Source of the DNA: an uncultured Clostridia bacterium
GTDB taxonomy: Bacteria; CAYTYR01; UBA6262
DNA length: 64,000 bases
Assembly: GCA_964441745.1 (NCBI GenBank)
Contig: CAYTYR010000001.1
Location: forward strand, 130,754 to 194,753
Direction: 5' to 3'
The notes under the pieces were generated by a model. That model was not told the origin of the DNA. It made no database searches and saw only the letters and a program-made list of their open reading frames with translations. This document shows, one piece after another, positions 45,514-62,646 of the stretch. How positions within the stretch are numbered: position 1 is the stretch's first letter; each line of letters opens with the position of its first letter. A program made the position numbers and the translations under genes.

Positions 45514-45559
45514 TCCCCAGCCCTTTGAGATTTATTGTTGTTCTCGGACTCTTAAATAC

Positions 45560-46990
45560 TTTCACGATTCAGTGCCTGATAATATGTTAGGCGCTTCCCC
45601 CCGATTCTTGGTAAAATGATTGTTACTGGCAATCAAACCAAGAAGAGGAGGAAACACCATGAATTATGTTGGTGTAGATCTGCACAAAGAGCAGTCCTGG
45701 TTCGTAGTTTTAGACAGTAAAGGTAAAAGATTGATCAGTAAGAGTATAGCAAATTCTCCGGAAGGGTTAAAGCAGTATTTCTCGAAACTACCGAACCCCT
45801 TTACCCTGGCTGTAGAATCAACATATAACTGGTATTTCTTTGTTGATCTCGCGGAACAATACGCGGAAAAAGTATATCTGGCTAATTCCTATGAGCTGAA
45901 AGCCTTTGCCAAGAGACATAAGAAGACAGATAAGATAGATGCTCATCTGATCGCCGAGGTCCTACGTAAAGGATATTTGCCTACCGTGACTATTCCAGAT
46001 CAAGAAACCAGACGGGTCAAAGAGCTGTTGCGCTACCGGATGAATCTGGTCAGGGAACGCTCTAAGAATATTTATCAGGTAAGTGGTAATTTTACTACCT
46101 ACAAACGATTAAAGGCTCTCCCCCTGGAGCTTTTTCCTCCCAATTACCGGGAGATCATCCAGGGTTACAGCGAGAGAATCGAGTTTCTCACCCGCTGGCT
46201 CTTTCAGATAGAAAAGTATATCAAAGAAAATGTTAAGGATGACGAAGATATCATAAACCTGATCACTATTCCGGGTATCGACTATTTCAGTGCGGCTTTG
46301 ATTAAGACCGAGATCATTGATATCAGCCGGTTTGCTTCTTTTAACCGCTTATGCGCGTATGCCGGGTTAGCTCCCAGAGTCAGTCAAAGCGCCAATAAGG
46401 AAGTACATGGACCTTTAAATATCAATCGCCGGAAGAACCTGCAATGGATCCTAATTGAAGTGGTATATCATTTCATCAAGGCTCTTCCTGAGAAAAGCCA
46501 GCGCTATGAAAGCATAGTAAGCAGAAAAGGCGCTAATACCGCTAAAGTAGCCATGGCCCGAGAAATGCTCAAGATCATTTATCACGTTTTAAAAGAAAAA
46601 AGGCCTTTTTATCAGCATGTTGTCCGGTCTGAGGTGTCTCCTGCGCTCTATGGGGTCTGAGGTGCCGCAAGGCAGCTCTCGAAGGTCTGATTAGCGAGGA
46701 GCCACCACCCGATATTATCATGCAGTCCCGATGCACAGGGAGCTGCCGAGAGGTGACTGAAGTCCGGCATATGGCGGAGCTTCTCAAGGTAACTGATGGG
46801 TGTGGCGCCGACTGGATGATCTTTATAGCAATCATTGAATCTTAAGATTGTGGGGAATCTTTCAAGGGATCTCTATCTCTTCCCTTGACAATCACCTAAA
46901 TAGGTGAACCCGTTACTTCTAGACCCCGTTACTTCCTTACGAAATTTGATTACTAGGGAAGAAGGCTCCCGTTAGCTCTAGCATCAGCTT
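45560..46990 (+). mobile_element. IS110-family insertion sequence (boundaries approximate; this family lacks terminal IRs)
   Basis: Transposase gene plus a 330-bp GC-richer 3' flank, contrasting with AT-rich surroundings. Confidence 0.55.
45659..46660 (+). CDS. IS110-family transposase (DEDD N-domain + C-terminal HhH)
   Basis: MNYVGVDLHKEQSWFVVLD (DEDD motif 1), …TIPGIDYFSAALIKTEIIDISRF (C-terminal domain). GAGGAGG SD upstream. Confidence 0.8.
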   Translation: MNYVGVDLHKEQSWFVVLDSKGKRLISKSIANSPEGLKQYFSKLPNPFTLAVESTYNWYFFVDLAEQYAEKVYLANSYELKAFAKRHKKTDKIDAHLIAEVLRKGYLPTVTIPDQETRRVKELLRYRMNLVRERSKNIYQVSGNFTTYKRLKALPLELFPPNYREIIQGYSERIEFLTRWLFQIEKYIKENVKDDEDIINLITIPGIDYFSAALIKTEIIDISRFASFNRLCAYAGLAPRVSQSANKEVHGPLNINRRKNLQWILIEVVYHFIKALPEKSQRYESIVSRKGANTAKVAMAREMLKIIYHVLKEKRPFYQHVVRSEVSPALYGV

Positions 46991-46991
46991 C

Positions 46992-47135
46992 TTATAGTGG
47001 TATTAGTACCTCTTCACACCAAGAAATAACTTCTTCTGCATTATCTACTGAAGTAATATGCCAAAATATTCGTTGTAAATCTTTCCCTTTGAGAATATCA
47101 ATCGGGATGTCAGAATATTTTCCAAATTGCTTTAT
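46992..47135 (-). pseudogene. 3' fragment of a gene interrupted by IS21 insertion (…EFTIKQFGKYSDIPIDILKGKDLQRIFWHITSVDNAEEVISWCEEVLIPL)
   Basis: The reading frame runs out of the IS21 left terminal repeat. The N-terminal portion lies beyond the IS at 49553-50205. Confidence 0.4.
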
Positions 47136-47303
47136 TGTAAATTCCGCCGCATGACGACCGCAGATTCCGCTGCATGGCGACCGGGTTTTCCGCTGATGAC
47201 GACCAGCCGTTGGCCAGGATAAAACCAAAGCCGAATAAATTCAAGCATAATCTTCAAAAAACTGCCATAATGTGCCTACTTTATTCATTGGAGGCGCAAA
47301 AAG

Positions 47304-48740
47304 ATGGCGCAAAAGAGGTTATGCGTGAGACAAATCAAAGAAGTGTTAAGATTGAAGTATGAGCTGGGTAAAACCCACCAGGAAATCAAAAATATATGCG
47401 GTATAGGCAAAACCACGGTACAGGAATATCTTTCCCGGGCGCAAGCGGACGGGCTCAGCTGGCCCTTACCGCCTGATCTGAATGATGTCCAGTTGGAACA
47501 GCGATTATTCAAGAAAAAGAGCAATCCAGTAATAGGAAAGGCGCCGATTCCCTACCAGTATATAGCCGAAGAATTGCGCCGGCCCAATGTAACCTTGTGG
47601 TTGTTATGGGAAGAATACAAAAAAGAAAATCCGGAGAACGGCTATCAGTATAGTTTTTTCAATGAACAGGTTGATAAATACCTTGGCCGCGTAAACTACA
47701 GTATGCGACAGCAGCATCAGGCTGGTGAAAAAGTATTTGTTGATTTCGGCAATATTGAAGAACCGGGAATACTCGATCACTCCACCGGAGAGCTTTTAAA
47801 GATTCAGTTCTTCGTGGCAGTCTGGGGCGCTTCGCAATACGCCTATGCCGAAGCCTCACTGAGTCAGGATACCGCGGCCTGGATCAAGCTTAACATCAAC
47901 GCCTTGAGATTTTTCGGTTGCGCGCCGCAAGCGCTGGTGCCGGACAATCTTAAAGCCGCCGTAACTCAAACCTGCAAATATGAACCGATAATTAATAACA
48001 CTTTCATCGAGTTTGCCAATCACTATGATCTGGCGATAATGCCGGCCAGGCCAGCCAAACCAAAAGACAAGGCTTTAGCGGAAAACGGCGTTAAACTGGT
48101 CAAGCGCTGGATACTGGCCCGCCTGAGAAATAGAATTTTCGCTAATTTGGAACAATTAAACGCCGCCATCCGTGAACTACTGGAATATTACAATACACGG
48201 ATTATGAAAAAATACGGCAAATCGCGTAAAGAACTGTTTGCTTCTCTGGATAAACCAGTGGCGGCTTCTCTACCGGAAACAGATTATGAATATGCCCAGT
48301 GGAAAAAAGCCAGGGTGAATATTAATTATCATGTGAATTTTGAGAAACACGATTATTCAGTTCCTTACACGTTAATCCACAAAGAAGTGGAGATCAAAGC
48401 CACTACCGGAATAATCGAGGTGTATTTCCAGGGCGAAAGAGTCTGCGCTCATGCCAGAAGTGGCCGGGAAAACGGCTATTCCACGATCAAAGAGCACTTG
48501 CCGCCATCACACCAGAAATACCTGGAGTGGACCCCGCACCGATTAGTTTCCTGGGCCGAAAAATACGGCCCGGCAGTCAAAGCTCTCGTGGAAGCTATTA
48601 TGGCTTCGACCAGATTCCCGGAACAAGCGTATAAACGCTGCCTGGGTATTATCCGGCTGGGCAACCGCTATTCACCCCAACGTCTCAATACCGCTTGCCA
48701 ACGCGCTCTTAAATACCAGCAAACGGAGGAAAAACCATGA
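47304..48740 (+). CDS. istA: IS21-family transposase IstA
   Basis: N-terminal HTH (RQIKEVLRLKYELGKTHQEI), DDE core (…VDFG…, …D…, …E…), 478 aa. Overlaps istB by 4 bp. Confidence 0.85.
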   Translation: MAQKRLCVRQIKEVLRLKYELGKTHQEIKNICGIGKTTVQEYLSRAQADGLSWPLPPDLNDVQLEQRLFKKKSNPVIGKAPIPYQYIAEELRRPNVTLWLLWEEYKKENPENGYQYSFFNEQVDKYLGRVNYSMRQQHQAGEKVFVDFGNIEEPGILDHSTGELLKIQFFVAVWGASQYAYAEASLSQDTAAWIKLNINALRFFGCAPQALVPDNLKAAVTQTCKYEPIINNTFIEFANHYDLAIMPARPAKPKDKALAENGVKLVKRWILARLRNRIFANLEQLNAAIRELLEYYNTRIMKKYGKSRKELFASLDKPVAASLPETDYEYAQWKKARVNINYHVNFEKHDYSVPYTLIHKEVEIKATTGIIEVYFQGERVCAHARSGRENGYSTIKEHLPPSHQKYLEWTPHRLVSWAEKYGPAVKALVEAIMASTRFPEQAYKRCLGIIRLGNRYSPQRLNTACQRALKYQQTEEKP

Positions 48741-49477
48741 ACCTAAATCAAACTATTACCAGGCTCAATGAAATGAAATTATTCGGTCTGGCCAGAGCTT
48801 ATCAGGACAGAAGAACCAAACCAGACCATCAAGACCTCTCCTTTGACGAATTCTTAGGCCTGCTTGTTGACGATGAATACTTATACCGAAAAAATAACCG
48901 CCTCAAAAGACTTTTACAACTGGCCAGATTCAAAATCAACAATACCTCTCTGGAAGAAATAGACTACCGCCAGCCAAGAGGTCTGCAGAAAACTCAGATC
49001 GTCAATCTCCAGAATACTTCTTGGCTGACTAATCATCAGAATATCTTAATTGCCGGTCCAACAGGAGTCGGCAAAACCTATCTGGCCTGCGCTTTCGGTA
49101 ACTGGGCTTGCAGAAACGGCTTTACCACTGCCTATTTCCGCTGGCCGCGTCTTTTCGGCGACATCCTCGTGGCCAAAGGCGAAGGCAATTACCTTAAACA
49201 TCTTAAAAAACTGGCTAAAATTCAACTGCTGATTATTGATGATTTCGGCCTCAATGCTCTTGCCGATAGCGATAGAAAGGATTTCCTGGAAATCATTGAA
49301 GACAGATATATGGCTGGCTCGACCATTATTACCAGTCAATTGCCAGTCAAAGACTGGCACGAGTTTATCGGCGAGCCTACTATTGCTGATGCCATTATGG
49401 ACAGAATCCTTCATCTGTCCTGCAAATTTGATTTAAAAGGAGGTTCCATGCGTAAACCGCAAAAAAATATTGATTAA
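48737..49477 (+). CDS. istB: IS21-family helper ATPase IstB
   Basis: IAGPTGVGKTYLACA Walker A, LLIIDDFG Walker B. Confidence 0.85.
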   Translation: MNLNQTITRLNEMKLFGLARAYQDRRTKPDHQDLSFDEFLGLLVDDEYLYRKNNRLKRLLQLARFKINNTSLEEIDYRQPRGLQKTQIVNLQNTSWLTNHQNILIAGPTGVGKTYLACAFGNWACRNGFTTAYFRWPRLFGDILVAKGEGNYLKHLKKLAKIQLLIIDDFGLNALADSDRKDFLEIIEDRYMAGSTIITSQLPVKDWHEFIGEPTIADAIMDRILHLSCKFDLKGGSMRKPQKNID

Positions 49478-49552
49478 ACCGCCTTTTTAGAGTATAAAGC
49501 TATCAAAGATTATGCTTGTCTTACCGGTTGGTCGTCATCAGCGGATTTTACA

Positions 49553-50205
49553 CTAATCTGAAAAACTAAATACTCGGCCCTATTAGATAGATTTTGAGTA
49601 TTTGGGATTATAATGCCTAATGGTAGAAGCTGTTGAAATAGTGTTTCGAGTAATGCGAAAATATTTGCATAAAGTTTGTAATCCCCATTTCTTGTGAGCC
49701 AACCTTGGCCTTGTGCTATAAACTGTAATGCAATTGCGGGAGGGACATCGTGGTTTGCATTAAATTGATTCGGATTAATAGTAATTCCTCTCTGTTGTAA
49801 TGTTGTACTTTCGCCCTCGTGGATATGATAAAAAGATGGAGCTCTCGAACCTTGATAAGATTCATAACCTGCCAAATGGAAACCAAGTCTTGCATTTTGT
49901 GGATCAGGATTCTTTGGGATCAACCTATTCAATTCAGTCTCTAATTTATCTGCAAAATCCTTAAGAGTAGCAAGAGAAGAATTACTCGAAATAAAACTAG
50001 CAAGTCATTGGTCAGTTGAGACACTGTTAATTGATCCCATCCCCCAGCAAGAAATACCAGCGTTCAAATATGGAATCGTTTGTAATTTTATTGCAGCATT
50101 ATTTTGTGCGTGACTCAAATTCGTATGTGTATTGGTATAAGTAACGGCAGTATTTGCCGCCATTGTTATTCCAAGAGGGCTGATTTCAGTAAGTACTAAT
50201 GTCAT
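49553..50205 (-). pseudogene. 5' portion of the IS21-disrupted gene; contains an in-frame TGA at about 50002-50004 joining ORFs 50005-50205 and 49510-49932
   Basis: GGAGGATAAACA SD before the ATG at 50205. The same reading frame continues through a single TGA (…STDQ*LASF…) and then into the IS21 right end. Confidence 0.45.
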
Positions 50206-51519: not shown

Positions 51520-51561
51520 ATTTTATTATAAATTCTGTACCTGTCTTAGGAAGCTATGGGA

Positions 51562-52509
51562 TCAGTTATCGAAATTAGCATTAAGCTTCTCTATCTCTTT
51601 CCTGAGCTGGCTGTCTTCTTGCATTTCCCGCTCTATGCTGCCCGCCGCCTTACTGGCTGCCGAGCAGCTGATACCAAATATCTTACCTATTTCTTCATTG
51701 TTTAAATTACTATACCTCTTTAGCAGATAGATCGCTACCTTTTTCTCTTTGATACGATACTTCTTCATCTTGCATGGCTCGGACATATTGATGCCATATT
51801 CCTGGCTGATCAAATCCATGATGTCTTTGACGTCTCTCGGTCCTTTTAGTTCCTCTTTATAGGAAAAATCTTTACTGGCTACCTTCTCTTTCAGAATCTT
51901 AAGCTTTTCCTTGATAAATGATGGTTCCCCTAAGATAAATCCGGCATAAATGCCTTTGAGCGGAGTGTCTTTATTCCCTATGCCTTCTGCTGCGTATTGA
52001 CGATATTGTTCAGTACCAATAGAAATAGCCTCTCTGATCTGTTTCTTATCTATGTATCCATCGCCATCTTTCTTTAAATACCCTTGATAGCTGGAATATT
52101 TAAAATCTTCCGGTTTCGGTACGATCTTAGCCCTGACCGGATTCAAGTGAATATACCTGGTCAGTTCCAATAGGTAGTTGTCCTTATCCACCAGGATAGA
52201 CTTGTATCTGCCCTGAAAAACATGTCCAGATTTATGACATTTGAGATTGTAATAGGTGGTATAGGAGGAATTCACATAGTGCATGATCTTGGAGAGATTG
52301 GGCTGGGTGGTTTCCAGCAGCAGATGGTAATGGTTATTCATCAAAACATACGCATACAGATAGAAGTTATACTTGGCTTTGGCATTAAGCAGATATTTAA
52401 GAAATTGCTGATAATCATAATCACTGACGAAGATCTTCTTCCGGTCATCGCCACGGCTGGTGATATGATAGCAGCAATTTTCGCCTTGTAATCGATACGG
52501 TCTGGCCAT
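51562..52509 (-). CDS. IS200/IS605-like Y1 (HuH) transposase fused to a C-terminal DnaA-domain-IV-like HTH (copy 1, intact)
   Basis: HuH motif NNHYHLLLE, catalytic Tyr region (YIHLNPVRA). C-terminal segment LKRYSNLNNEEIGKIFGISCSAASKAAGSIEREMQED resembles the DnaA C-terminal HTH. Confidence 0.7.
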   Translation of the reverse strand: MARPYRLQGENCCYHITSRGDDRKKIFVSDYDYQQFLKYLLNAKAKYNFYLYAYVLMNNHYHLLLETTQPNLSKIMHYVNSSYTTYYNLKCHKSGHVFQGRYKSILVDKDNYLLELTRYIHLNPVRAKIVPKPEDFKYSSYQGYLKKDGDGYIDKKQIREAISIGTEQYRQYAAEGIGNKDTPLKGIYAGFILGEPSFIKEKLKILKEKVASKDFSYKEELKGPRDVKDIMDLISQEYGINMSEPCKMKKYRIKEKKVAIYLLKRYSNLNNEEIGKIFGISCSAASKAAGSIEREMQEDSQLRKEIEKLNANFDN

Positions 52510-52797
52510 AGGTCATATTTTACTATCTTGCTTCTTCTTTGTCAATCTATTTCCCATTTCAAGGACTGACCCCGTTGTCTCCTTTGCCATTGTTATTCTC
52601 CAAATCTGCCCGCTTCCCGGTGGCCACAACTCCCTGCTGACGGCACCGTCTGAAGCCATTGCCACGGTATACTATTCAATATACCATTCCCGAAATTAGT
52701 ATACCGTTGCCTATTACCCTGTTTGTTACCTCATTCGGGGCGTTATTACCCTATTCGCGCCATTTTCTCGCACCACTGGTAAGAGAAATACCTTTTT

Positions 52798-53241
52798 CTA
52801 ATGGCGCTTATTATCGCGTTTATTATCACGTTTACCTGACTTATTATCAGGTTTAGACCTCTTGCGACACTTTAACGCCCCATTAGCATTACTCTGCCGC
52901 TGAGCCTTCTTAAATTCCTCATCAAGTTGCTCGATTTCCGCTAACAGATGCCGCTTTAGTAGCGTCCATTCATATTCGTTAAGTTTCATGCCCCGGCGTG
53001 TGTCATAATATTTTTTATTTAAAACCTTCGGGGCATTCTCAATCTTCATTAATCTGCCCTTCCAGAACACCAAATCATTCACATTGCCGTTGTGCAATTC
53101 CAAAGGTACCAGCCAGCCCCCTTTATAAAGCTTATCATCATAAGGGGTGGTGCTATTTAATTCTGCCAACTCCTTCTTGCTCATTCTATGCAACGGCTTC
53201 GCGCAATCATTGAGCCTAAGAAAAAATGTCGTCGTTCCCAT
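52798..53241 (-). CDS. Hypothetical protein with basic K/R/D-rich tail (147 aa)
   Basis: ORF only. Immediately downstream of abiEii. Confidence 0.35.
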   Translation of the reverse strand: MGTTTFFLRLNDCAKPLHRMSKKELAELNSTTPYDDKLYKGGWLVPLELHNGNVNDLVFWKGRLMKIENAPKVLNKKYYDTRRGMKLNEYEWTLLKRHLLAEIEQLDEEFKKAQRQSNANGALKCRKRSKPDNKSGKRDNKRDNKRH

Positions 53242-53244
53242 GAT

Positions 53245-54168
53245 TTAATCTTTCTTCGTTATAATTTTCTTTAACTGTCGAACCGCATGAGCATGCTTAT
53301 CGTCGCCCATCTTTGCAAGATTCGATAGCTTCCATTTAACCGCTGGCATATCTTGAGCGCCTTTAACGCCCAAAAGATCCCACTTCGGCGCTCTTTCTTT
53401 AAATGAGATCAAAAAAGCGCGTTCATCCTCTGTTATCCGTCTATTAATTTCCTCAACTAAGGTTTTTCTGACGCGCACTAATTCTTCATACTTCACGTCA
53501 AATGAAGCCATTCCCGCGAACTCTTTTTCAAAAACCGGTTTCATATCCTTGAAATTCGGCGATAACAGTTCCGAGATTGGACGATTATGGCTTATAAGAT
53601 AAACAAGGAACGATTTACGGACTTGTTCTGTAATCCCTTCGTTTCTAAGAAGCAACATGATGTCGAAGATATCCCGCGGATGTTGTCTGTCAAGTGCCGC
53701 GCATATCTTGGAACCGTAAAGCTCAGAAAATGCCAGTGTCTTTGTAGACACGAATTTTTCAAAAACCTCCTCAGCCTTTTTGCAAAGATCTCTTTCCTCG
53801 GGCCCGAATAAAGACCCTCGAATAACATTATTCGGTTCGACTTTAACGATAGCATTTTGCTTTTTAACATAAAGTTTGGAAATAAATCCTTTTGCAGAAT
53901 CCGCTTTCTCCTCTATCAACACGGAAGGCATACTCGAAGAAATGCGTTTCGCTATCGACTTTAGCTGATCGCTGATAGCTTTGATCGTTTCCTTTCGGGA
54001 ACTAAGGCGCAAATAAGTCAGATCGATATCAACGGAAAGGCGCGGCATGTCACGCACGAAAAAATTGATCGCCGTTCCGCCATGTAAAGCGAAATCAGTG
54101 TCCGTGGTCATATACGGGAGTATGGAGATGAGAAGCTCGGCCTGCTGATAGAATAAATTCTTATTCAT
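53245..54168 (-). CDS. abiEii: AbiEii/AbiGii-family nucleotidyltransferase toxin (type IV TA / abortive infection)
   Basis: FALHGGTAINFF…SVDIDL (NTase GS…D.D signature of DUF1814/AbiEii); 307 aa. Confidence 0.75.
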   Translation of the reverse strand: MNKNLFYQQAELLISILPYMTTDTDFALHGGTAINFFVRDMPRLSVDIDLTYLRLSSRKETIKAISDQLKSIAKRISSSMPSVLIEEKADSAKGFISKLYVKKQNAIVKVEPNNVIRGSLFGPEERDLCKKAEEVFEKFVSTKTLAFSELYGSKICAALDRQHPRDIFDIMLLLRNEGITEQVRKSFLVYLISHNRPISELLSPNFKDMKPVFEKEFAGMASFDVKYEELVRVRKTLVEEINRRITEDERAFLISFKERAPKWDLLGVKGAQDMPAVKWKLSNLAKMGDDKHAHAVRQLKKIITKKD

Positions 54169-54177
54169 AATCTCCTG

Positions 54178-54942
54178 TTATTTGGGAACGACTATTTTAT
54201 ACTTGCTGTCATAATGGCCATTATTGCAAAGAGACCTCTTCCCTGTTCCAAAATTAACCTTTTCAAGATTCAATTTCTTGACCCACGCATGATTATTCTT
54301 CTCGGCTAAGTACATGAATAGCCTTTTCGTCTTAACAGAGCCGCATTTTTCTAAAAGCTCTTGAACCATGCTCGGGCGAAGCGTCGTGAGGCCGGACATT
54401 ATCTGATCCAGTTCATCAAAGGATTCTCTTAGCGGAACGTTGTAGCATAATTCTATAACGGCTCTTTCTGCCGAGGATATCTTGATCTCATAGTTCCCTG
54501 AATTATATGTTGTAAGCCCCTGCCCGGTCTCATCTCCAAAAAGTCCAGTCATCACATATCGCACATCAACTTCCCATTTGTAGTTTTTAAACCATTCAGG
54601 AAGCTTTTCGTTTTTGGCTCCAAAAAGGATAATCTTTGCTTGTTTAAAATTTGCCGGAAGATAATGCGCGCTGCCCAATAATTGAAGAGCAGTCTTTCCC
54701 GCAGGATGAACGGACATATTTAACTGCGTTTGCAATGTATACAGCCCGCCATTCCAGTCGACATTTTCTCCGGCCCGCTTAAAAGCTCCTTGCCCTATCC
54801 GTTCTATCCAACCGCTCTTAACATATGTTCCGGCTAATTGGCGATACACACCCTGCCCTTCGAGCCAAGTGGATACAGCAACGGTATTTTTAGGCCAGCT
54901 TCTAAGTAAATTGTTTATTATACTTCCATTTTGTCTATCCAT
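54178..54942 (-). CDS. abiEi: AbiEi-family antitoxin/transcriptional regulator
   Basis: The N-terminal domain with GQGAFKR and the C-terminal domain match AbiEi. Positioned immediately upstream of abiEii with a 9-bp gap. Confidence 0.7.
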   Translation of the reverse strand: MDRQNGSIINNLLRSWPKNTVAVSTWLEGQGVYRQLAGTYVKSGWIERIGQGAFKRAGENVDWNGGLYTLQTQLNMSVHPAGKTALQLLGSAHYLPANFKQAKIILFGAKNEKLPEWFKNYKWEVDVRYVMTGLFGDETGQGLTTYNSGNYEIKISSAERAVIELCYNVPLRESFDELDQIMSGLTTLRPSMVQELLEKCGSVKTKRLFMYLAEKNNHAWVKKLNLEKVNFGTGKRSLCNNGHYDSKYKIVVPK

Positions 54943-55080
54943 AATAGTCTGTTTAGCACAATTTTAAACCAATGTCAAGCATTTTCACTTACTGTAGCGT
55001 AGTTTGGAATACTGCCAATATGTAAACAATAACTTGTCATTCAAGACATATTCTAAACCTCTATGTAGATAGCGTTTACC

Positions 55081-55108
55081 GTCTGTCGCAAAAACTATGT
55101 TCTTTTTG
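55081..55108 (-). terminator. Hairpin terminator (GTCGCAAAAA-ctatgttc-TTTTTGCGAC) downstream of the 90-aa gene
   Basis: Perfect 10-bp inverted repeat seen in sequence. Confidence 0.45.
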
Positions 55109-55171
55109 CGACAAGCGGCGGAACTGCACTATGAAATAAGACAGTTGTTCTATGGGATAGAACAGGCGGGA

Positions 55172-55444
55172 TTACAGGACGGATTCTTGGAGCTTGCCGG
55201 TCGTGGCGTCCACAATCCGGAAGTGAGTTTTGCCGGTGCGGCCTCTCCACTGCTCTTCGATATTCAGGCTCCAGTCGCCCAGAGGCATGACTTTCTGGAT
55301 CTCCCGCAGGCGAAGCTTGCCAGCCGGGACCGCGCCCACAAGATCGCCCTCGCTGGAGATGTTTTCCACGTAAACTTCCTCACCAGCCAGCCGGACGCTG
55401 ATGTAGCGGGTTTTCTTAACCGCTTGATCAATAACTCGTGCCAT
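55172..55444 (-). CDS. Hypothetical 90-aa protein encoded by a conspicuously GC-rich patch
   Basis: GGGAGG SD. The local GC is visibly higher than the flanking AT-rich DNA. Confidence 0.4.
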   Translation of the reverse strand: MARVIDQAVKKTRYISVRLAGEEVYVENISSEGDLVGAVPAGKLRLREIQKVMPLGDWSLNIEEQWRGRTGKTHFRIVDATTGKLQESVL

Positions 55445-55587
55445 ACGCCTACCTCCCTTTTGAGGTCAAGTAGGCCATAGGTTCAAGCGGTTGGCAAGGA
55501 ATTATTCCACCACTTTGCTCACCGCAGCGCTCGAAATATTAAAATATTTACCTATTTCAATATTGCTGAGCGCTGTCACTCTTTTCA

Positions 55588-56373
55588 TTAAATATATTGC
55601 GACATTTCTCTCTTTGGAAGTCTATTCTTCAATTGCCTCAATTCTTCCAGCTCTTTCCCATATTCCTGGGCTATAACCCCAGCTATTTCTTCTATCCCTA
55701 TATCTCCGACTATTTCCCGCTGATCTGCATAATCGCCGCCTGCTGCCTGCTCTTTCAGTTCCTTCAGCTTTTCTTTAATGAACTTTGTCCGGCCTAATAT
55801 AAACCCGCCATATACTTCCTTGAATGGATCTGCTTTATGATTTATTCCTTCTTCGTTAAATTCACGATAACTCATTGTGTCTAGGAATATCACCTGGCTG
55901 ATCTGCGCCTTGTCTATATATCCGTCTCCTTCTTTTGTGAGATACCCCTTATAGCTAGACCACTTGTATTCTTCTGGCTTTTTAGCCATCCCGGCCCTGA
56001 CCGGATTCAAGTGAATATACCTGGTCAGTTCCAATAGGTAGTTGTCCTTATCCACCAGGATAGACTTGTATCTGCCCTGAAAAACATGTCCAGATTTATG
56101 ACATTTGAGATTGTAATAGGTGGTATAGGAGGAATTCACATAGTGCATGATCTTGGAGAGATTGGGCTGGGTGGTTTCCAGCAGCAGATGGTAATGGTTA
56201 TTCATCAAAACATACGCATACAGATAGAAGTTATACTTGGCTTTGGCATTAAGCAGATATTTAAGAAATTGCTGATAATCATAATCACTGACGAAGATCT
56301 TCTTCCGGTCATCGCCACGGCTGGTGATATGATAGCAGCAATTTTCGCCTTGTAATCGATACGGTCTGGCCAT
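55588..56373 (-). pseudogene. IS200-like Y1 transposase/DnaA-HTH fusion, copy 2 (frameshifted: HTH now in another frame at about 55500-55585)
   Basis: The first 128 codons plus 70 bp of 5' flank are identical to copy 1 (52129-52575 vs 55995-56441). The DnaA-like HTH (MKRVTALSNIEIGKYFNISSAAVSK) is out of frame downstream. Confidence 0.6.
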
Positions 56374-56511
56374 AGGTCATATTTTACTATCTTGCTTCTT
56401 CTTTGTCAATCTATTTCCCATTTCAAGGACTGACCCCGTTGATTTTATTCTGGGGATTTAATTCTCATTTATTCAAGATTATTAAAAGCTAATAGAAATT
56501 ATATCTTGAAT

Positions 56512-56640
56512 CTATTTATTTCTTTTTTTAATAACTTCTACTACTGCCGTGCTTGGACGCTGCCGAGCTTTTTCCACAGGGATGAACTCGCCGGTTTTTG
56601 CATCACGGCCAATTTTAAATCCTTTTGTCTTATTAGACAT
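56512..56640 (-). CDS. 42-aa protein MSNKTKGFKIGRDAKTGEFIPVEKARQRPSTAVVEVIKKRNK
   Basis: My own translation; AAAGGAG SD 7 nt upstream. Not in the ORF track (below the length cut). Confidence 0.45.
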   Translation of the reverse strand: MSNKTKGFKIGRDAKTGEFIPVEKARQRPSTAVVEVIKKRNK

Positions 56641-56711
56641 AAATAAGCTCCTTTCATAGTATTTTGATTCATAGTTTGTCTTATGAACCAAAGTTTTGTT
56701 GATTAAATAAT

Positions 56712-57203
56712 TTAAATCTTCTCCACAAATCGTTTCAAAATTGCTTGCGTAATATAAGGATTCTTTTCCGCTATTTTATTTGCAATTGTTATAGCCTCTC
56801 TGCTTACCAGATATCCTTTTTCAACGAGTAATTTCATTAAATTTAAACCCCAAATAGTTTCTATTCCGATTTTATTACACTCAGTAATAAGCTTTTTATC
56901 ACTGCTAATACACGGACAGTTCTTATCACGAGATAGTATAAAACATAATCTATCTTGAAAAGATAGAGGGCCACTTCTCTTAGAAGCTTCTTGTAATTGA
57001 TTCAAGCTCGGCTCAACAGTCACCAGGCCTAAGCTTTCTGCTTGACCCGGTAATATCTGCTGAACCTCTTGAAGAGTAGCTTTTGACACGTAGATTTGTA
57101 AGCAGTGCTTTGAAAATAACTTCAGGATCTTGGGTTCCGTTAGTATATAGTCAATCAATACACTGGCATCACAAATGACTCCCTTTACTGAAGAATCTGC
57201 CAT
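56712..57203 (-). CDS. PIN-domain protein (DUF4411-like)
   Basis: GVICDASVLIDY N-terminal acidic motif of PIN nucleases. Overlaps the upstream XRE-ImmA gene by 19 nt. Confidence 0.55.
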   Translation of the reverse strand: MADSSVKGVICDASVLIDYILTEPKILKLFSKHCLQIYVSKATLQEVQQILPGQAESLGLVTVEPSLNQLQEASKRSGPLSFQDRLCFILSRDKNCPCISSDKKLITECNKIGIETIWGLNLMKLLVEKGYLVSREAITIANKIAEKNPYITQAILKRFVEKI

Positions 57204-58297
57204 GATTTAGTTTTTTCCCTTAAATCAAGAAGTGAAATACCTAATATTTCTGATGCTCTGCTTTGAGATATTTTTTCACTGGTCAATGCGTCTCTGATAA
57301 GACCTTCAAGGTAATCTTCTGAAAAATCTATTTCTTCTAATGGACAAGGTTCTTTATGCCCTTTTAAATCTTTATTAAATCTTCTTTTGTATTCCACGTT
57401 GAAGGATTTCCAAATATCTTTATTAGTAACTCCTTCTTCAATAAGTCTAAATAAAACAGTCCCATAACTTACCTTAAAAATACGTTTCACATAAAATATC
57501 CGTTCTATGGTTGGTAATCCGCGGCCTTCTTCCCAGATACGCTTAAAAATATTTTGAGGCATCAGGAAATACGAAGCAAATATATCCGCCTCTTTTTCTT
57601 CCCGGTCGTTTTCGGCTAATTTGTTAATATCAAAAGAATATTCATGTAAAAGTATATGGGCTAGCTCATGTGCTAAAGTAAATATTTTACGTTCTACGCT
57701 AATATCTTTTGAGTCATTAACTCCTATAGCTGGGCCATAATCATCTTCACTTAAAGAAAATCCAAAACTCCCAGCCATCTTAAAATCGATTGCCGAAATT
57801 ATAATCCCTGCTGATTCTAGAACTGAAGGTAAATCAGGGATGGGGTCTTCTTCACATATCGCTAATTTTGAGCGTACAGACATTGATAGGCTTTTAAGTT
57901 GTTCATTAGAAAAAGATTTCTTAGCTTCTTTCAGCCCAGCTAAACTAAACGGCTTCCTGCAATTGAGAATTTCCTCGAGATTTCTTAAATCCTTAAGTTT
58001 GAAGGCAAATTTATGTACAACGTCTTCTCTTATAAGTATTCCCTTTTTTGAAAGGTTCTGAGATCGGAATCTAAGAGATTTCAATTCAGGGGCAGGTTCA
58101 ATAATAGATTGAATATTTACTTTAAGAGCAGAAGCAATATTATCAAGAGTGGATACCCGTGGCTCTGCTTTTGCCTGCTCAATAGAAATATAAGCAGCTC
58201 TGCTTAACTTTGCTTTTTCAGCAGCTTCTTCTTGAGTAAAGCCGCTTAACAGCCTATATCGTCTTATATTTTTTGCTACTATGTCCTTGATAGACAT
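57185..58297 (-). CDS. XRE-family HTH fused to ImmA/IrrE-family zinc metallopeptidase (COG2856-type)
   Basis: HTH (IVAKNIRRYRLLSGFTQEEAAEKAKLSRAAYISIEQAK) and the HEXXH motif LAHELAHILLH. Start placed at the Met preceded by GGGGGAGGGG (58297). Confidence 0.7.
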   Translation of the reverse strand: MSIKDIVAKNIRRYRLLSGFTQEEAAEKAKLSRAAYISIEQAKAEPRVSTLDNIASALKVNIQSIIEPAPELKSLRFRSQNLSKKGILIREDVVHKFAFKLKDLRNLEEILNCRKPFSLAGLKEAKKSFSNEQLKSLSMSVRSKLAICEEDPIPDLPSVLESAGIIISAIDFKMAGSFGFSLSEDDYGPAIGVNDSKDISVERKIFTLAHELAHILLHEYSFDINKLAENDREEKEADIFASYFLMPQNIFKRIWEEGRGLPTIERIFYVKRIFKVSYGTVLFRLIEEGVTNKDIWKSFNVEYKRRFNKDLKGHKEPCPLEEIDFSEDYLEGLIRDALTSEKISQSRASEILGISLLDLREKTKSWQILQ

Positions 58298-58320
58298 TGC
58301 CCCTCCCCCTTGTGGTAGCA

Positions 58321-58340
58321 TAGTATAGTAAACTATACTA
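58321..58340. promoter_or_regulatory. 8-4-8 palindrome TAGTATAG-TAAA-CTATACTA overlapping a TTGACA-N17-CTATAT promoter for the XRE-ImmA/PIN operon
   Basis: Seen in sequence on the minus-strand sense, 25-45 nt upstream of the ATG. Confidence 0.4.
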
Positions 58341-58378
58341 ATTAATATATAGCATAATATATGTATAGTTGTCAAGTC

Positions 58379-59818
58379 TTATTTAGCCTGTAATATTGCC
58401 TCATGAAGCTTAACCATCGCTAAGGTATCGCGTTTGCAATAAGCGAGTAAATTCCTGCGAATCTTCTCTTTCTCTGTAGGTTTTTCAATTAATCCCATTG
58501 CCATAAAAGCAAAAAGTGCTGCTGCGCTACCGCCTTCTTTAATTTCTAGATCACTATAATCAAGTTCAGCTACCATTACTGGTAAGACCTTCTTAATCGA
58601 GTAGCTACCGCAAAAACCAGGGTGATAATAATGGCTCCTTAGAAGTGCGCAGAGGTCAAAAAGCCGTGCGATAATATTATTCAGAGGATCACTTAAATCG
58701 GGAAAGATTTTTGCGAGACCGCTAATAATACCTTTTTCATATGAAGAATAGACTATAATACTACCTTTACCCTTTAATATAAATACTAGGTTTTCTGCAA
58801 TAGTTCGCCTGCAGTCATGTGAAGGGTCAGCAAGATATTCGAAATGGGCTATTTCTGTACCCGGCGCAGAACATTGGTGGATAGAATATTGAGTTACTAT
58901 TTTCTCATAAGGCCCAATTTCATCATAAATAGGTAAAGCCGTTGCGCAGGTTTCAAAGTCAAGATACCAAGCTGGCCAAATGATTGAGTTTATTTCTTGG
59001 TTTAATTGTGGTGAGACGAAAGACTTTTTGGCACATACTGACTGCCATACTCGTTTTTGTGTATCAGACAGCTTAATACCAGGTGGGATATGATCAATTT
59101 GATAAACACTATGTTCGGATAGCTCCTTAAAGAGCTTTTCTGATATCCTCGGAATATCAAAGATGTGATTACTAATTCCTTGTCCGGAACAAGCTTCGAA
59201 TACAGGACAGTTTTTGCATTCTAAGATCAATTGCGGCTTGGGCGAGATATCTAAATTCAATAACTCACTTAATCGATCGGCTTCTGCATTAAATATATCA
59301 GCCTTTTCTTTTGCTTCACTTGTTATATCCTCTTCAATAAATAAATCTTTTACAGGCATACCTTTTCGATATTCTCCTGAAACCAGCAATAATGATATAG
59401 AGTTAACTTTAATTCCTGCACGAGTCATAACTGCGAATGTATATGCAGCATCTTCAACGTATTCTGGTTTTACATCCTTGCCTGATTTTACTTCTCTAAG
59501 ATGCCAACCTTTACTGTCTTTGTATATAACATCAGCCCTGGCACCCAATCCATCTGCTGAAAACGCAGCTTCAAAAAGAATATGGTTAGTGTGTAGTGCC
59601 TTACCTGTTGCAGCAACTGCCTCCTGCATTGCACCAGGGATTAATACCCCTGAATCATAAAGTAACCGAGCCTTTTCGGTGATCATATTCCCTTCTAAAC
59701 GCCTAAGCTTTATATCTTCGGATACAATTTCAGGCAGTTGATTATTATGTGTTAGCCACCCCAAGCGTGGACAAATAAATGCGTTAAGAAAAGTGGTTTT
59801 TGCTATTAATTTTGCCAT
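58379..59818 (-). CDS. DUF2779-family protein (N-terminal Cas4/RecB-like PD-(D/E)XK nuclease + C-terminal RNase-H-like 3'-5' exonuclease)
   Basis: EVKSGK nuclease motif, Cys cluster ECKNCPVFEAC, and YLDFETCATALP (DEDD-like). Confidence 0.6.
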   Translation of the reverse strand: MAKLIAKTTFLNAFICPRLGWLTHNNQLPEIVSEDIKLRRLEGNMITEKARLLYDSGVLIPGAMQEAVAATGKALHTNHILFEAAFSADGLGARADVIYKDSKGWHLREVKSGKDVKPEYVEDAAYTFAVMTRAGIKVNSISLLLVSGEYRKGMPVKDLFIEEDITSEAKEKADIFNAEADRLSELLNLDISPKPQLILECKNCPVFEACSGQGISNHIFDIPRISEKLFKELSEHSVYQIDHIPPGIKLSDTQKRVWQSVCAKKSFVSPQLNQEINSIIWPAWYLDFETCATALPIYDEIGPYEKIVTQYSIHQCSAPGTEIAHFEYLADPSHDCRRTIAENLVFILKGKGSIIVYSSYEKGIISGLAKIFPDLSDPLNNIIARLFDLCALLRSHYYHPGFCGSYSIKKVLPVMVAELDYSDLEIKEGGSAAALFAFMAMGLIEKPTEKEKIRRNLLAYCKRDTLAMVKLHEAILQAK

Positions 59819-59834
59819 AACTACTCCAATATTC

Positions 59835-60323
59835 TCAGCTTATCTCAAGCCATTTATTGTTTACATAATCTCCTATTCCACTTGGATGAAACGAATTGTA
59901 TAATTTTTCAAATTCCATCTTTGCATTATCATAAGAGTCATTTGGAATGATTTTTGCCCTTTTTGCCAGGTAAAGTAGCCCTATTGTTGGCCCCCTAGAC
60001 ATCCCCTCATCACAATGTACTAACACATTACGACTTTTAATCCAATTATCAATAAAATCTAGAACACTCATAAATGTCTTTGGACCGCTCCAATCGTATA
60101 AATATGCTGCACCATCTACCCAATTTAATGAGAGATGATTATCTTTTTCATAAATTATGTAATTAGGATGGGTTTTATTAGGTTTATTATATTTACGATT
60201 CCAATTCATATACCTGTAATGTATCGTTTGGGTAGCATGGACAAAAGCCCAATCGTTATCGTTAGTATTATTTATATCTTGAATAGACCCAATATAAAGG
60301 TTTGTATTAGGAATCTTTATCAT
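59835..60323 (-). CDS. Cys-based dual-specificity/protein-tyrosine phosphatase
   Basis: VLVHCDEGMSRGPT is the HC(X)5R P-loop signature. Confidence 0.7.
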   Translation of the reverse strand: MIKIPNTNLYIGSIQDINNTNDNDWAFVHATQTIHYRYMNWNRKYNKPNKTHPNYIIYEKDNHLSLNWVDGAAYLYDWSGPKTFMSVLDFIDNWIKSRNVLVHCDEGMSRGPTIGLLYLAKRAKIIPNDSYDNAKMEFEKLYNSFHPSGIGDYVNNKWLEIS

Positions 60324-60423
60324 ATTAGATCTGCCTTAAATTTAATCAGTTTTGTGTCTCCTGATATCTTGGATATCTTCAAGAAGAATAAAGGTCTTTT
60401 CAGGGAGTTTAAGCACAGTGGTT

Positions 60424-61338
60424 CTATTTTGGGAAGCAAAGTTCCCGGTAATTGCAGAAACCACATATTTTCATATTACTGGTCGTAGCAAATTCCTTTT
60501 TCTCTTTCGGGATATTCTGCTCGATGCTTTTAAGCGCTGCGTACATCTCTCCGGTTTCCGTTTTGACCGTATCGCTGAATGCCTTAATATCCGACACACT
60601 AACCTTTATTGAAATCTCCGAATACTTCGGTAGGAGATAGGCTGTCCCAGGGAATATCCTTGCCGGCTCCTTGCTAAAATTGTTTGCTGCCCAGGTAGAG
60701 TAGCCGATAAGCTGTTTTGAATGCTTTTTCTCATCAGGTTTGCCTGTTTTCCAATCAAGTATGAATATATCGCCGTCAACAGGGAAAAGGAAATCCACTT
60801 TGCAGTAGGCTTTCATACCGTCTATCCTGGTTTCGCCATATCCCGGAGGCTCTATTATCCAGCCTGTTTTGTTTGTTATAGCTTTTTCAATTATCCAACG
60901 AAACCTGTCACTTCCGATGAAGTTATTAAGTCCCATCTTCACGTTTTCATAGATCCAGTCAGTATCAATGTTCTTAAGCTGTTTGTAATAGACCTCGGCA
61001 AAAGTTTTGGCACCGCAGTATTCATCCGTTTTCTTTCGCGCGTAATCTAAGAATCTTTCACTGTCGACCGGCTCCTCGCTTTTCAAAAGTCTTTCCAAGA
61101 ATGCCTTTATAGTATCGTGGATGATATTGCCTGTCTCAAGGGCCGTCGAAGTCATAGATTTTAAAGCGTTAATCTTTGAGCGCGGGCACTCAGTATCGTA
61201 TTTTCCGTAATAGTCGAAATAATACTGCCTCCGGCACAGTTTGAACTTGTCGTAACGCGACAATGACCAGCCCAGTATATCCGAGTAATCGTAGCGTTTG
61301 ATGTTATTTAGTTTCTCGTTCATTTTTTTTGCTCCCAT
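60424..61338 (-). CDS. PD-(D/E)XK nuclease with Cas4-like Cys4 (Fe-S) arrangement
   Basis: RIDGMKAYCKVDFLF…ILDWKTGK (D…D/E.K), one N-terminal Cys and a C-terminal CGFCNYRELC. Confidence 0.65.
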   Translation of the reverse strand: MGAKKMNEKLNNIKRYDYSDILGWSLSRYDKFKLCRRQYYFDYYGKYDTECPRSKINALKSMTSTALETGNIIHDTIKAFLERLLKSEEPVDSERFLDYARKKTDEYCGAKTFAEVYYKQLKNIDTDWIYENVKMGLNNFIGSDRFRWIIEKAITNKTGWIIEPPGYGETRIDGMKAYCKVDFLFPVDGDIFILDWKTGKPDEKKHSKQLIGYSTWAANNFSKEPARIFPGTAYLLPKYSEISIKVSVSDIKAFSDTVKTETGEMYAALKSIEQNIPKEKKEFATTSNMKICGFCNYRELCFPK

Positions 61339-61488
61339 TTTCTCTTAATATCCCTATTACAAATACTCCCTTTTTATAAGTTCCTTCTTATAAATATACA
61401 GTATCTTTAGCAGTTATGACAAGCAACTTGCTTTATTACTTTCTTCAGCTAATTTTCAGACAAATTCCCGTTTCAGTGCCTGACCCCG

Positions 61489-61650
61489 TTGTTTTCCTGA
61501 TGAATATTTTCTTCCGGTCATCGCCACGGCTGGTGATATGATAGCAGCAATTTTCGCCTTGTAATCGATACGGTCTGGCCATAGGTCATATTTTACTATC
61601 TTGCTTCTTCTTTGTCAATCTATTTCCCATTTCAAGGACTGACCCCGTTG
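61489..61650 (-). mobile_element. Miniature remnant of the Y1-transposase element (first ~36 codons + 5' flank only), bounded by CTGACCCCGTTG on both sides
   Basis: 61507-61650 is identical to 52437-52575 and 56301-56441. Confidence 0.6.
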
Positions 61651-61690
61651 TCTCTGTTTCATGACCCCGTTGTCTCTGACTGACCCCGTT
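61636..61690. repeat. Three tandem GACCCCGTTGTCTCT units (REP-like)
   Basis: CTGACCCCGTTGTCTCTG-TTTCAT-GACCCCGTTGTCTCTGACT-GACCCCGTTGTCTCTG seen in sequence. A related pair GAACCCGTTACTTCT / GACCCCGTTACTTCC lies at 46908-46938. Confidence 0.6.
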
Positions 61691-62510
61691 GTCTCTGAAG
61701 TAAAGTGAGACATTGGGTTGCTCTTACCGAAGCTTCGTAAAAGGACCCTTCCTTTTCCAAATAATCTTTGAATTCCTTAAGCTTCGAGATTAATACTTTC
61801 TTATTATTTCTGGCTTTAATAACAGCTTCAGAAGCATTGTCATTTTGGGTTAATAGTAACACGCCTTTGACTGGCAAATCAATACTAGCAAAATGGTAAT
61901 GATTGACTAACTTGATAGCTCCAAGAAGGGCCAGCTCTTCCCTTGCTTCAGGAGAAGCTCTAATTCCAATTTTCTCTTGAAAAAGCATTGCAACTCGATC
62001 CTGTAGGAATACCAATCGCTCATAAGGCTCATGACAGTCCCTATGCTGTAGAGTCCCATCCCCCTCTTGAAATGGAAAAGAGTCACTCATTGCCTCAAGC
62101 ACTAAGTTAAGTGCAAAAATACAATCTTGATCTAAGAAAAGTTGATGATCGGAATATACTTTCTTAAGTTTATCATATTCCCCGGAAGGTACCGGTTCAT
62201 TCATCCATCCTTCATCCGGATCGTATCCTACCTCAGACCACCTTCTCTTAGTTTCAGCTATATGGCTAAGAATTGAGGCAAAAGCTAACCGTTGATGGTC
62301 AAAAAATAGCGATGTTCGAAGCTGATGAAGTTGGCGCTCATATAAAGCCGCTTGCATATTAGCATTCAATTCTGCTTTATATGCTTCTAGCCTTTGTGCA
62401 TACTCATGCTTTATACTCTCACGTATGCGTTCGGAAATCCAATGGCGAAAGAGCCAGACAATTATAGCGCCAGAAAGACCGCCTGATACTATATTGAGCA
62501 TTAATTCCAT
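61691..62510 (-). CDS. Membrane-anchored hypothetical protein (N-terminal TM helix + roughly 250-aa cytoplasmic domain)
   Basis: MELMLNIVSGGLSGAIIVWLF TM segment. The start at 62510 avoids a low-complexity extension, and the 3' end is uncertain because the ORF runs into the repeat array. Confidence 0.4.
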
Positions 62511-62646
62511 AGATATTGCCACCTCCAATCATTAACTATATATTAATTAGGTTTTTAGGAACACTCATAAAATTAACCCTTCTAATCTTGTTTAGTCTTT
62601 GCTGTTTTTTTGCTTCAATATCCCTTGGCTTCCTATGTTTTATTAT

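Follow-up and report, generated by a model that had tools for sequence, protein, structure and literature searches.

Among the closest described systems are the TIRtrons, in which a RAYT-like gene, named TIRYT, is flanked by terminal inverted repeats (TIRs). The parts of the original description drawn on here report that many TIRs contain GGGGWSAS, that some occur solo, as dimers or in clusters, and that in one class ("3'ov") a TIR overlaps the 3' end of the gene (Di Nocera, De Gregorio and Rocco, 2013, BMC Genomics 14:522; PMC3733652). These genes are probably the TnpA_REP subclass 2.1 of a later classification, which was found in 14.9% of strains and includes a subgroup, 2.1.2, of long Y1 proteins without nearby repetitive extragenic palindromic (REP) sequences; their Bac_DnaA_C-like C-terminal domain is related to Bac_DnaA_C, HTH_23 or HTH_28, and the role of this helix-turn-helix (HTH) was left open (Quentin, 2018; PMC6006769). 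No paper on TIRYT biochemistry was found in the literature after 2018. Here these systems are compared with a 64,000-nucleotide stretch from an uncultured Clostridia bacterium (contig CAYTYR010000001.1, positions 130,754 to 194,753; hereafter the window). The region very probably holds TIRtrons, known but experimentally uncharacterised small mobile elements, and the tandem units found in it would be local duplications spanning the junction between an element and its flank. The TIRtron sequences of the window comprise an intact element, a mosaic pseudogene, a 5' remnant and two solo TIRs of a sister subfamily. This architecture has been published before, and nothing in the window is categorically new.

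An Intact TIRtron in the Window

The intact element, copy 1, and its parts are as follows.

51558-52573, minus strand: copy 1, intact TIRtron from tip to tip (GGGGTCAG ... CTGATCCC), 1016 bp, recognised by its TIR match and family-like size and layout
51562-52509, minus strand: TIRYT gene, an intact open reading frame (ORF) of 315 amino acids (aa) with the HuH motif H60-Y61-H62 and candidate catalytic Tyr119 in YIHLNPVRA
52147-52479, minus strand: Y1 HuH nuclease domain, aa 11-121, from the Pfam Y1_Tnp match and the top Foldseek match, 4er8
51577-51843, minus strand: DnaA-domain-IV-like HTH domain, aa ~223-311, from TIGR00362 positions 344-435, the family profile and structural superposition
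52583 to 52556, minus strand: left TIR, AGGAGACAACGGGGTCAGTCCTTGAAAT, which holds GGGGTCAG, an exact match to GGGGWSAS
51548-51575, plus strand: right TIR, AGGAAGCTATGGGATCAGTTATCGAAAT, with the TGA stop of the gene inside it (CTGATCCC)
52517-52545, minus strand: promoter-like site TTGACA-17-TAAAAT in the left end, 7 nt before the ATG, agreeing with the consensus at 11 of 12 positions

The two ends were found in an alignment of the region around the stop with the 100 nt that precede the ATG. They match at 20 of 28 positions, a score that none of 300 shuffles reaches (best shuffle 19). An earlier note on this DNA, made from its letters and translated ORFs, had observed that three copies of the transposase share a 5' end finishing in ...CAAGGACTGACCCCGTTG. 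They do, and in gene orientation this end reads CAACGGGGTCAG, which holds GGGGTCAG; the short repeat that the note had linked with the transposase copies forms the outermost part of the left TIR, its tip. The promoter-like site is likewise present in all three copies.

The same note took this repeat for a REP. Hairpin prediction gave no significant structure at either end of the element, at the solo end or in the tandem array described below (z-scores -0.95 to +1.17 against shuffled sequence), no GTAG-stem structure was seen in the sequences of the element ends and array, and the repeat is a TIR tip with GGGGWSAS. An Rfam scan of the window returned three tRNAs only, with no RNA family at the TIRtron element or at the IS110 element.

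Domain Architecture and Fold of the TIRYT Protein

The catalytic core is a Y1 HuH domain by Pfam PF01797 (Y1_Tnp; 49.8 bits against a gathering score of 23, E 4.6e-13), which places the protein in the superfamily, and no substitution of H60-Y61-H62 or Y119 occurs in alignments A2 and A3, of 34 and 44 homologues. Within the superfamily, NCBIfam REP_Tyr_transpos (NF047646) is passed marginally by copies 1 and 2 (81.3 and 84.3 bits, cut-off 80), and the IS200 model (NF033573) reaches 16.9 bits against a cut-off of 55. The AlphaFold model (database proteins as input; pLDDT 84) finds the E. coli RAYT 4er8 as its best Foldseek match in the PDB (E 2.6e-7, TM 0.75), and its fold also matches 2xma and 2vjv, the transposases of ISDra2 and IS608 being found at about E 1e-4. 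The family profile, built from 34 relatives, matches 4er8 as well (E 2.7e-4).

The C-terminal domain matches Pfam Bac_DnaA_C below threshold (E 9e-5; 22.8 bits against a gathering score of 31.5) and TIGR00362 (DnaA) in its C-terminal positions 344-435 only (E 8e-9); the 35.1 bits obtained, against a cut-off of 343.9, set the protein apart from full-length DnaA. The family profile matches DnaA structures at E 9e-7 (8btg) to 7e-5, with 1j1v at 1e-5, and the last 90 residues of the model superpose on DnaA domain IV with TM 0.84 and a root-mean-square deviation (rmsd) of 1.6 Å for 3pvp and TM 0.85 for 1j1v, the superpositions as a whole giving rmsd 1.6-1.9 Å across 90-94 residues. TIRYT thus joins a RAYT-type Y1 HuH core to a complete DnaA-domain-IV fold.

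The earlier note had read the protein as a single-Tyr HuH enzyme of the RAYT branch, distinct from canonical IS200, with a DnaA-domain-IV-like tail, and that reading is right because the Pfam, NCBIfam, family-profile and structural matches, including the profile comparison it had proposed, all agree with it. It also called the architecture unusual; the combination is not new, being that of TnpA_REP subclass 2.1.2 (Quentin, 2018; PMC6006769). The C-terminal domain is the one described for that subclass, and PF08299 is precomputed for most of the homologues listed.

As a side observation, positions 107-177 of profile A2, after the catalytic Tyr, give weak matches to Cas12X structures 9ix6 (E 3.4e-3) and 8zqc (E 4.1e-3), which may be chance.

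Element Boundaries Across the Family

A search with TIRYT returned 5434 homologues at E <= 1e-3. The best 120 of these are nearly all 311-322 aa long, most with PF01797 and PF08299, and the named relatives among them come mostly from metagenome-assembled genomes of Omnitrophota, Thermodesulfobacteriota and similar groups. Eighty metagenome loci were fetched (L001-L080), with further relatives as L180-L187. At 53 metagenome loci GGGGTCA[G/C/A] stands about 65 nt upstream of the ATG and its inverse overlaps or shortly follows the stop; in many homologous loci the stop lies inside the TIR, at an offset of -4, the TGA of CTGACCCC being the stop. The best inverted repeats in these loci are 25-35 nt long.

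Boundaries could be read directly from near-identical elements in different contexts (L017/L020/L022 and L056/65/66/69/75-80), in which homology ends exactly at GGGG on one side and CCCC on the other. Over 28 non-redundant elements the length is 1003-1255 bp (median about 1036), the distance from tip to ATG is 53-95 nt, and 21-31 of 32 positions are the same at the two ends, left and right. These 28 elements show no target-site duplication beyond chance, flanking direct repeats being no longer than in permuted pairs, and the three bases outside GGGG are enriched for AAT.

The intact element is about 1.02 kb long, has imperfect TIRs of about 28 bp starting (YAAC)GGGGTCAG, and encodes one protein. 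Copy 1 and its relatives share what defines a TIRtron: the gene is flanked by TIRs in both, and GGGGWSAS is exact at the left end of copy 1 and present in most homologous loci. Judged by sequence comparison, the family traits appear to be those of a small mobile element and not of a domesticated single-copy gene. Because the homologues are elements of about 1.04 kb that run from GGGG to CCCC with neither target-site duplication nor end hairpins, the locus does not look like a REP/RAYT system, and the third copy, given as 160 bp in the earlier note, is not a miniature transposon.

Some of these traits would also suit a canonical insertion sequence of the IS200/IS605 group, whose single-strand, peel-and-paste movement depends on subterminal hairpins and a fixed target tetranucleotide. 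The Pfam Y1_Tnp match, the Foldseek matches to ISDra2 and IS608, the lack of target-site duplication and the AAT enrichment just 5' of GGGG all fit such an element. The score far below the NCBIfam IS200 cut-off does not, nor do ends that are inverted repeats without hairpins, the symmetry of the junctions at both ends (below) or the extra tail of 190 aa, which TnpA_IS200 lacks, and we consider this explanation extremely improbable.

Junction-Spanning Tandem Duplications

The tip of the left TIR recurs in the window well beyond expectation: CTGACCCCGTTG was found six times with at most one mismatch (0.10 expected) and GACCCCGTTGTCTCT four times with at most two (0.04 expected). No tip motif occurs in the remaining 44 kb of the window. 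A scan of genome contigs, the source genome not among them, with AGAGACAACGGGGTCA gave 99 single matches in unrelated taxa, and the retrieved stretches held no homologue. Some of the tips in the window form an array beside copy 3, the 5' remnant.

61639-61696, minus strand: three tandem CTGACCCCGTTGTCTCT-type units, in gene orientation AGAGACAAC followed by GGGGTCA(G), with unit starts at 61641, 61663 and 61682

The array reads AGAGACAAC+GGGGTCAGTC, then AGAGACAAC+GGGGTCA, then the true left end, with tip portions of 7 and 10 nt. The earlier note had recorded three tandem units read through by a neighbouring ORF and had taken them for the cognate repeat of the transposase. The three units are there, and the ORF (61659-62528, minus strand) runs through two of them. 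Their composition, a piece of flank followed by a piece of tip, suggests that the GACCCCGTTGTCTCT units are duplications made in situ across the flank/tip junction, and not cognate repeats dispersed in the manner of REPs.

The metagenome loci bear on this directly. The DNA just outside the tips is often a tandem array whose unit consists of locus-specific flank plus the first bases of the TIR. Tandem Repeats Finder reports repeats in 38 of 99 junction windows and in 110 of 1995 windows taken elsewhere in these loci (p = 2e-20), and 31 of the 38 junction repeats abut the tip. With matched controls the figures are 32/82 (39%) at the junction, 4/82 (5%) at 90-180 nt out, again 4/82 at 180-270 nt out, and 9/82 inside the element. 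Extra exact tip hexamers have the same orientation as the tip in 18 instances and the opposite orientation in none. Extra units carry either 1-4 nt of the tip (the G run) or 7-8 nt (GGGGTCA or GGGGTCAN), a bimodal distribution in which 5-6 nt is almost never seen, and the duplications are as frequent at the right end as at the left, both ends being symmetric. Since the array in the window is one more case of this family-wide duplication, it is a by-product of the element's end and not a cognate REP.

Variation within a single locus was also seen. Around one element (P0058), recovered from several metagenomes, the downstream 270 nt are identical and the left junction differs, with two units (16 + 13 nt), three 15-nt units, or else a flank that is rearranged and includes an additional solo left end; four of eight assemblies of this locus break at the tip.

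The array might instead be made of functional iterons, that is, binding sites of the HTH selected for autoregulation or end recognition, in place of scars of end processing. DnaA domain IV is an iteron-type reader, the three units are spaced at 19-22 nt just upstream of the promoter, and tip clusters recur across the family. Most outer units, though, retain no more than 1-4 nt of the tip, which is not enough to make a binding site, and the units include locus-specific flank, vary in number and length between samples of one locus, and are equally frequent at the right end, where there is no promoter. Iterons are accordingly a very improbable source of the array, and local duplication at the junction is preferred.

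This pattern is the sole part of the analysis that goes beyond the papers drawn on here, and it is offered as a lead rather than a result; the parts of the TIRtron description drawn on here do not present TIR clusters as junction-spanning duplications of flank plus tip (PMC3733652).

Degenerate Copies, Solo Ends and a Split TIR

The other TIRtron-derived features of the window are these.

55491-56437, minus strand: copy 2, a mosaic pseudogene, frameshifted, truncated at the 3' end and with no clear right TIR
55588-56373, minus strand: copy 2 ORF as called, 261 aa, frameshifted and 3'-truncated
61511-61650, minus strand: copy 3, a 140-bp 5' remnant comprising the upstream 70 nt and the first ~26 codons
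61453-61491, minus strand: solo left end of a second TIRtron subfamily (that of metagenome locus L001), directly downstream of copy 3
45546-45579, plus strand: left half of a solo L001-type TIR split by IS110
46922-46936, plus strand: right half of the split TIR, GACCCCGTTACTTCC, with a near-copy, GAACCCGTTACTTCT, at 46906-46920
45580-46921, plus strand: IS110-family element in the CTGA|CCCC core of the solo TIR, whose right boundary could instead be 46905

Copy 2 is frameshifted after ...LPKRE, its HTH going on as ERNVAIYLMKRVTALSNIEIGKYFNISSAAVSKVVE in another frame, and its final ~25 codons and right end are gone. Its first 127 aa are 100% identical to copy 1; from aa 128 to the end identity falls to 48% with copy 1 and is 83% with the database protein P0014. 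Between copies 1 and 2 there is no difference from the left tip to the end of codon 127 (52127-52577 and 55991-56441), so that the identical tract begins exactly at the tip, and the switch lies in the conserved NPVRA codons. We infer that the first ~450 nt of copy 2 were replaced by copy-1 sequence, in what would resemble a conversion tract primed at the left end.

Copy 3 had been described as a miniature copy bracketed by the repeat. Two CTGACCCCGTTG do bracket it, but as direct and not inverted repeats, the left one coming from the diverged left end of the other subfamily, and all tips at 61480-61696 lie on one strand. Since both tips point the same way and derive from two subfamilies, copy 3 is not a miniature element, and a reading of it as a miniature inverted-repeat transposable element was rejected. 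The solo end beside it (61453-61491) is 78% identical to the left end across 40 nt and aligns over about 70 nt with the L001 left end.

The repeat pair that the earlier note had placed beside the IS110 is real (GAACCCGTTACTTCT and GACCCCGTTACTTCC, 46906-46936). Joining 45546-45579 to 46924-46936 rebuilds TACTTTCACGATTCAGTGCCTGACCCCGTTAC, which matches the L001 right end at 29 of 32 positions. The inserted element has Pfam DEDD_Tnp_IS110 (4.8e-26) and Transposase_20 (9.9e-14) domains, and GA stands at either side of the insertion. The right end of the IS110 element itself (GAACCCGTTACTTCT, 46906-46920) is almost a second copy of the half-site beside it. REPs are known targets of IS110 elements; in this case a TIR tip would have been the target.

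Taken together, the copies and solo ends also bear on an interpretation close to that of the earlier note, in which a domesticated, single-copy RAYT (a REPtron) maintains genome-wide palindromic REP/REPIN repeats and GACCCCGTTGTCTCT is the REP. It draws on the REP_Tyr_transpos score of copy 1 just above the cut-off, on E. coli RAYT as best structural match, and on solo TIRs that stand apart from transposase genes (45546-45579 with 46922-46936, and 61453-61491). It is at odds with the lack of a hairpin at any end or array, with the confinement of the motif to part of the window, and with a gene that is multi-copy and mosaic, two copies and a remnant lying within 10 kb, while near-identical relatives occupy different metagenome contexts; nor was a REP found for subclass 2.1 (Quentin, 2018; PMC6006769). 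We regard this account as very unlikely, and the element does not look domesticated.

The two solo L001-type ends (61453-61491 and 45546-45579) sit just upstream of minus-strand genes, for a PD-(D/E)XK nuclease (60424-61338) and a DUF4062 protein (44038-45513) respectively. Because the left end of a TIRtron carries a promoter, solo ends of this kind might drive these two neighbours.

A Possible Mechanism and Its Weighing

The breakpoints of the junction duplications are discrete, lying either within the terminal G run or immediately behind GGGGTCA(G), with mirror symmetry at the two ends. It is possible, though we hold it to be doubtful, that TIRtron ends are hot spots of junction-spanning tandem duplication and that these are perhaps the first in-vivo footprint of TIRYT nicking. 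As for the way in which the elements probably work, the HTH would bind the conserved double-stranded GGGGTCA-N3-CT box at both ends and, once bound, would position the HuH/Tyr119 centre to nick one strand per tip, symmetrically and on opposite strands. This two-end nicking would contrast with IS200/IS605, in which a single strand and hairpins are used. Repeated nicking and rejoining, or slippage where the bound protein acts as a replication roadblock, could then yield both the junction duplications and conversion tracts initiated at a nick. The left end carries the putative promoter of the gene, and the right TIR supplies its TGA stop.

If the duplications are indeed such a footprint, TIRYT would work by a two-strand, TIR-guided mechanism in which a DnaA-like HTH places the HuH centre, unlike the peel-and-paste of IS200/IS605 and the hairpin cleavage of RAYTs; the triple repeat, the conversion tract of copy 2 and the variation in unit number between samples would all be products of TIRYT activity.

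Several points weigh against this interpretation. Binding of the TIR by the HTH, the position of the nick and the strand nicked are all things that we infer, and the junction duplications could come from ordinary slippage at G-rich junctions without any enzyme. In the profile alignment the DnaA segment (R)DHTTV, whose residues contact the DnaA box in 1J1V, is opposite SYSAVS (lsysav) in the family and SCSAAS in the window protein. GGGGWSAS is, moreover, unlike a DnaA box (Quentin, 2018; PMC6006769), for which reason the TIR may not be what the HTH reads. In copy 1 the motif is degenerate in the right TIR, where GGGATCAG keeps 7 of the 8 positions of GGGGWSAS; the assignment to subclass 2.1.2 is a putative one, made from architecture and the TIR; and the copy counts for the gene and the tip are those of the 64-kb window. 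With a TIR unlike the DnaA box and (R)DHTTV replaced by SYSAVS, an altered specificity of the HTH is plausible on sequence grounds.

Whatever the mechanism, the comparative work fixes exactly where the elements begin and end (GGGG...CCCC, about 1.04 kb, no target-site duplication), and it gives a 12-nt box conserved at the tips and candidate nick positions. For annotation, such genes are better labelled TIR-flanked Y1 elements than "REP-associated" or "IS200". The label would apply widely, as subclass 2.1 occurs in about 15% of surveyed strains (Quentin, 2018; PMC6006769) and more than 5000 relatives were found here.

Genomic Neighbourhood

From 40600 to 64000 the window is an island in which genes for toxin-antitoxin systems, abortive infection and nucleases lie alongside three kinds of mobile element. 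Its genes include AbiEi/AbiEii, an HTH plus M78 peptidase, DUF2779, a PD-(D/E)XK nuclease, RhuM and DUF4062-HATPase_c_4, and upstream of it lie three tRNA genes (30290, 39869 and 40593) and putative dnaX and recR, named by eye from their translations. An IS21-type element occupies 47189-49545, with IstA at 47304-48740, IstB at 48737-49477 and inverted ends of 21 nt (47189-47209 and 49525-49545) that are 95% complementary; the element seems to have interrupted a gene on the minus strand (ORFs 49510-49932 and 46992-47228).

Comparison With Known Systems

With DnaA domain IV (1J1V, 3PVP) the window protein shares the fold of the whole domain, and it lacks the AAA+ domain and domains I-III; the DnaA box, TTATCCACA, is unlike the TIR box of the element. 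Its likeness to IS200/IS605 elements such as IS608 and ISDra2 lies in the Y1 HuH chemistry, the lack of target-site duplication and the small size, whereas those elements have asymmetric subterminal hairpins, use one strand and insert at a fixed target tetra- or pentanucleotide, in contrast to the symmetric TIRs seen here. The E. coli RAYT (4ER8), which belongs to the REP/BIME system, has the same catalytic fold with HuH and a single Tyr, but it recognises single-stranded DNA at a GTAG-tagged hairpin, is single-copy and lacks an HTH tail; the window element has TIRs, no hairpin, several copies and a DnaA-IV tail.

The closest likeness is to the TIRtrons and to subclass 2.1.2. As in the TIRtrons, a RAYT-like Y1 gene is accompanied by TIRs instead of REPs, the TIR contains GGGGTCAG and one TIR overlaps the 3' end of the gene; solo and clustered TIRs occur in both, and the host in the window belongs to another lineage than those in the parts of the TIRtron description drawn on here. 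With subclass 2.1.2 the element shares the Bac_DnaA_C-like tail, the lack of a nearby REP and a conserved serine motif after the catalytic Tyr (WSSY in the window protein). Beyond the account given for that subclass, the comparative data presented here fix the boundaries of the element and show that the tip box is conserved at both of its ends.

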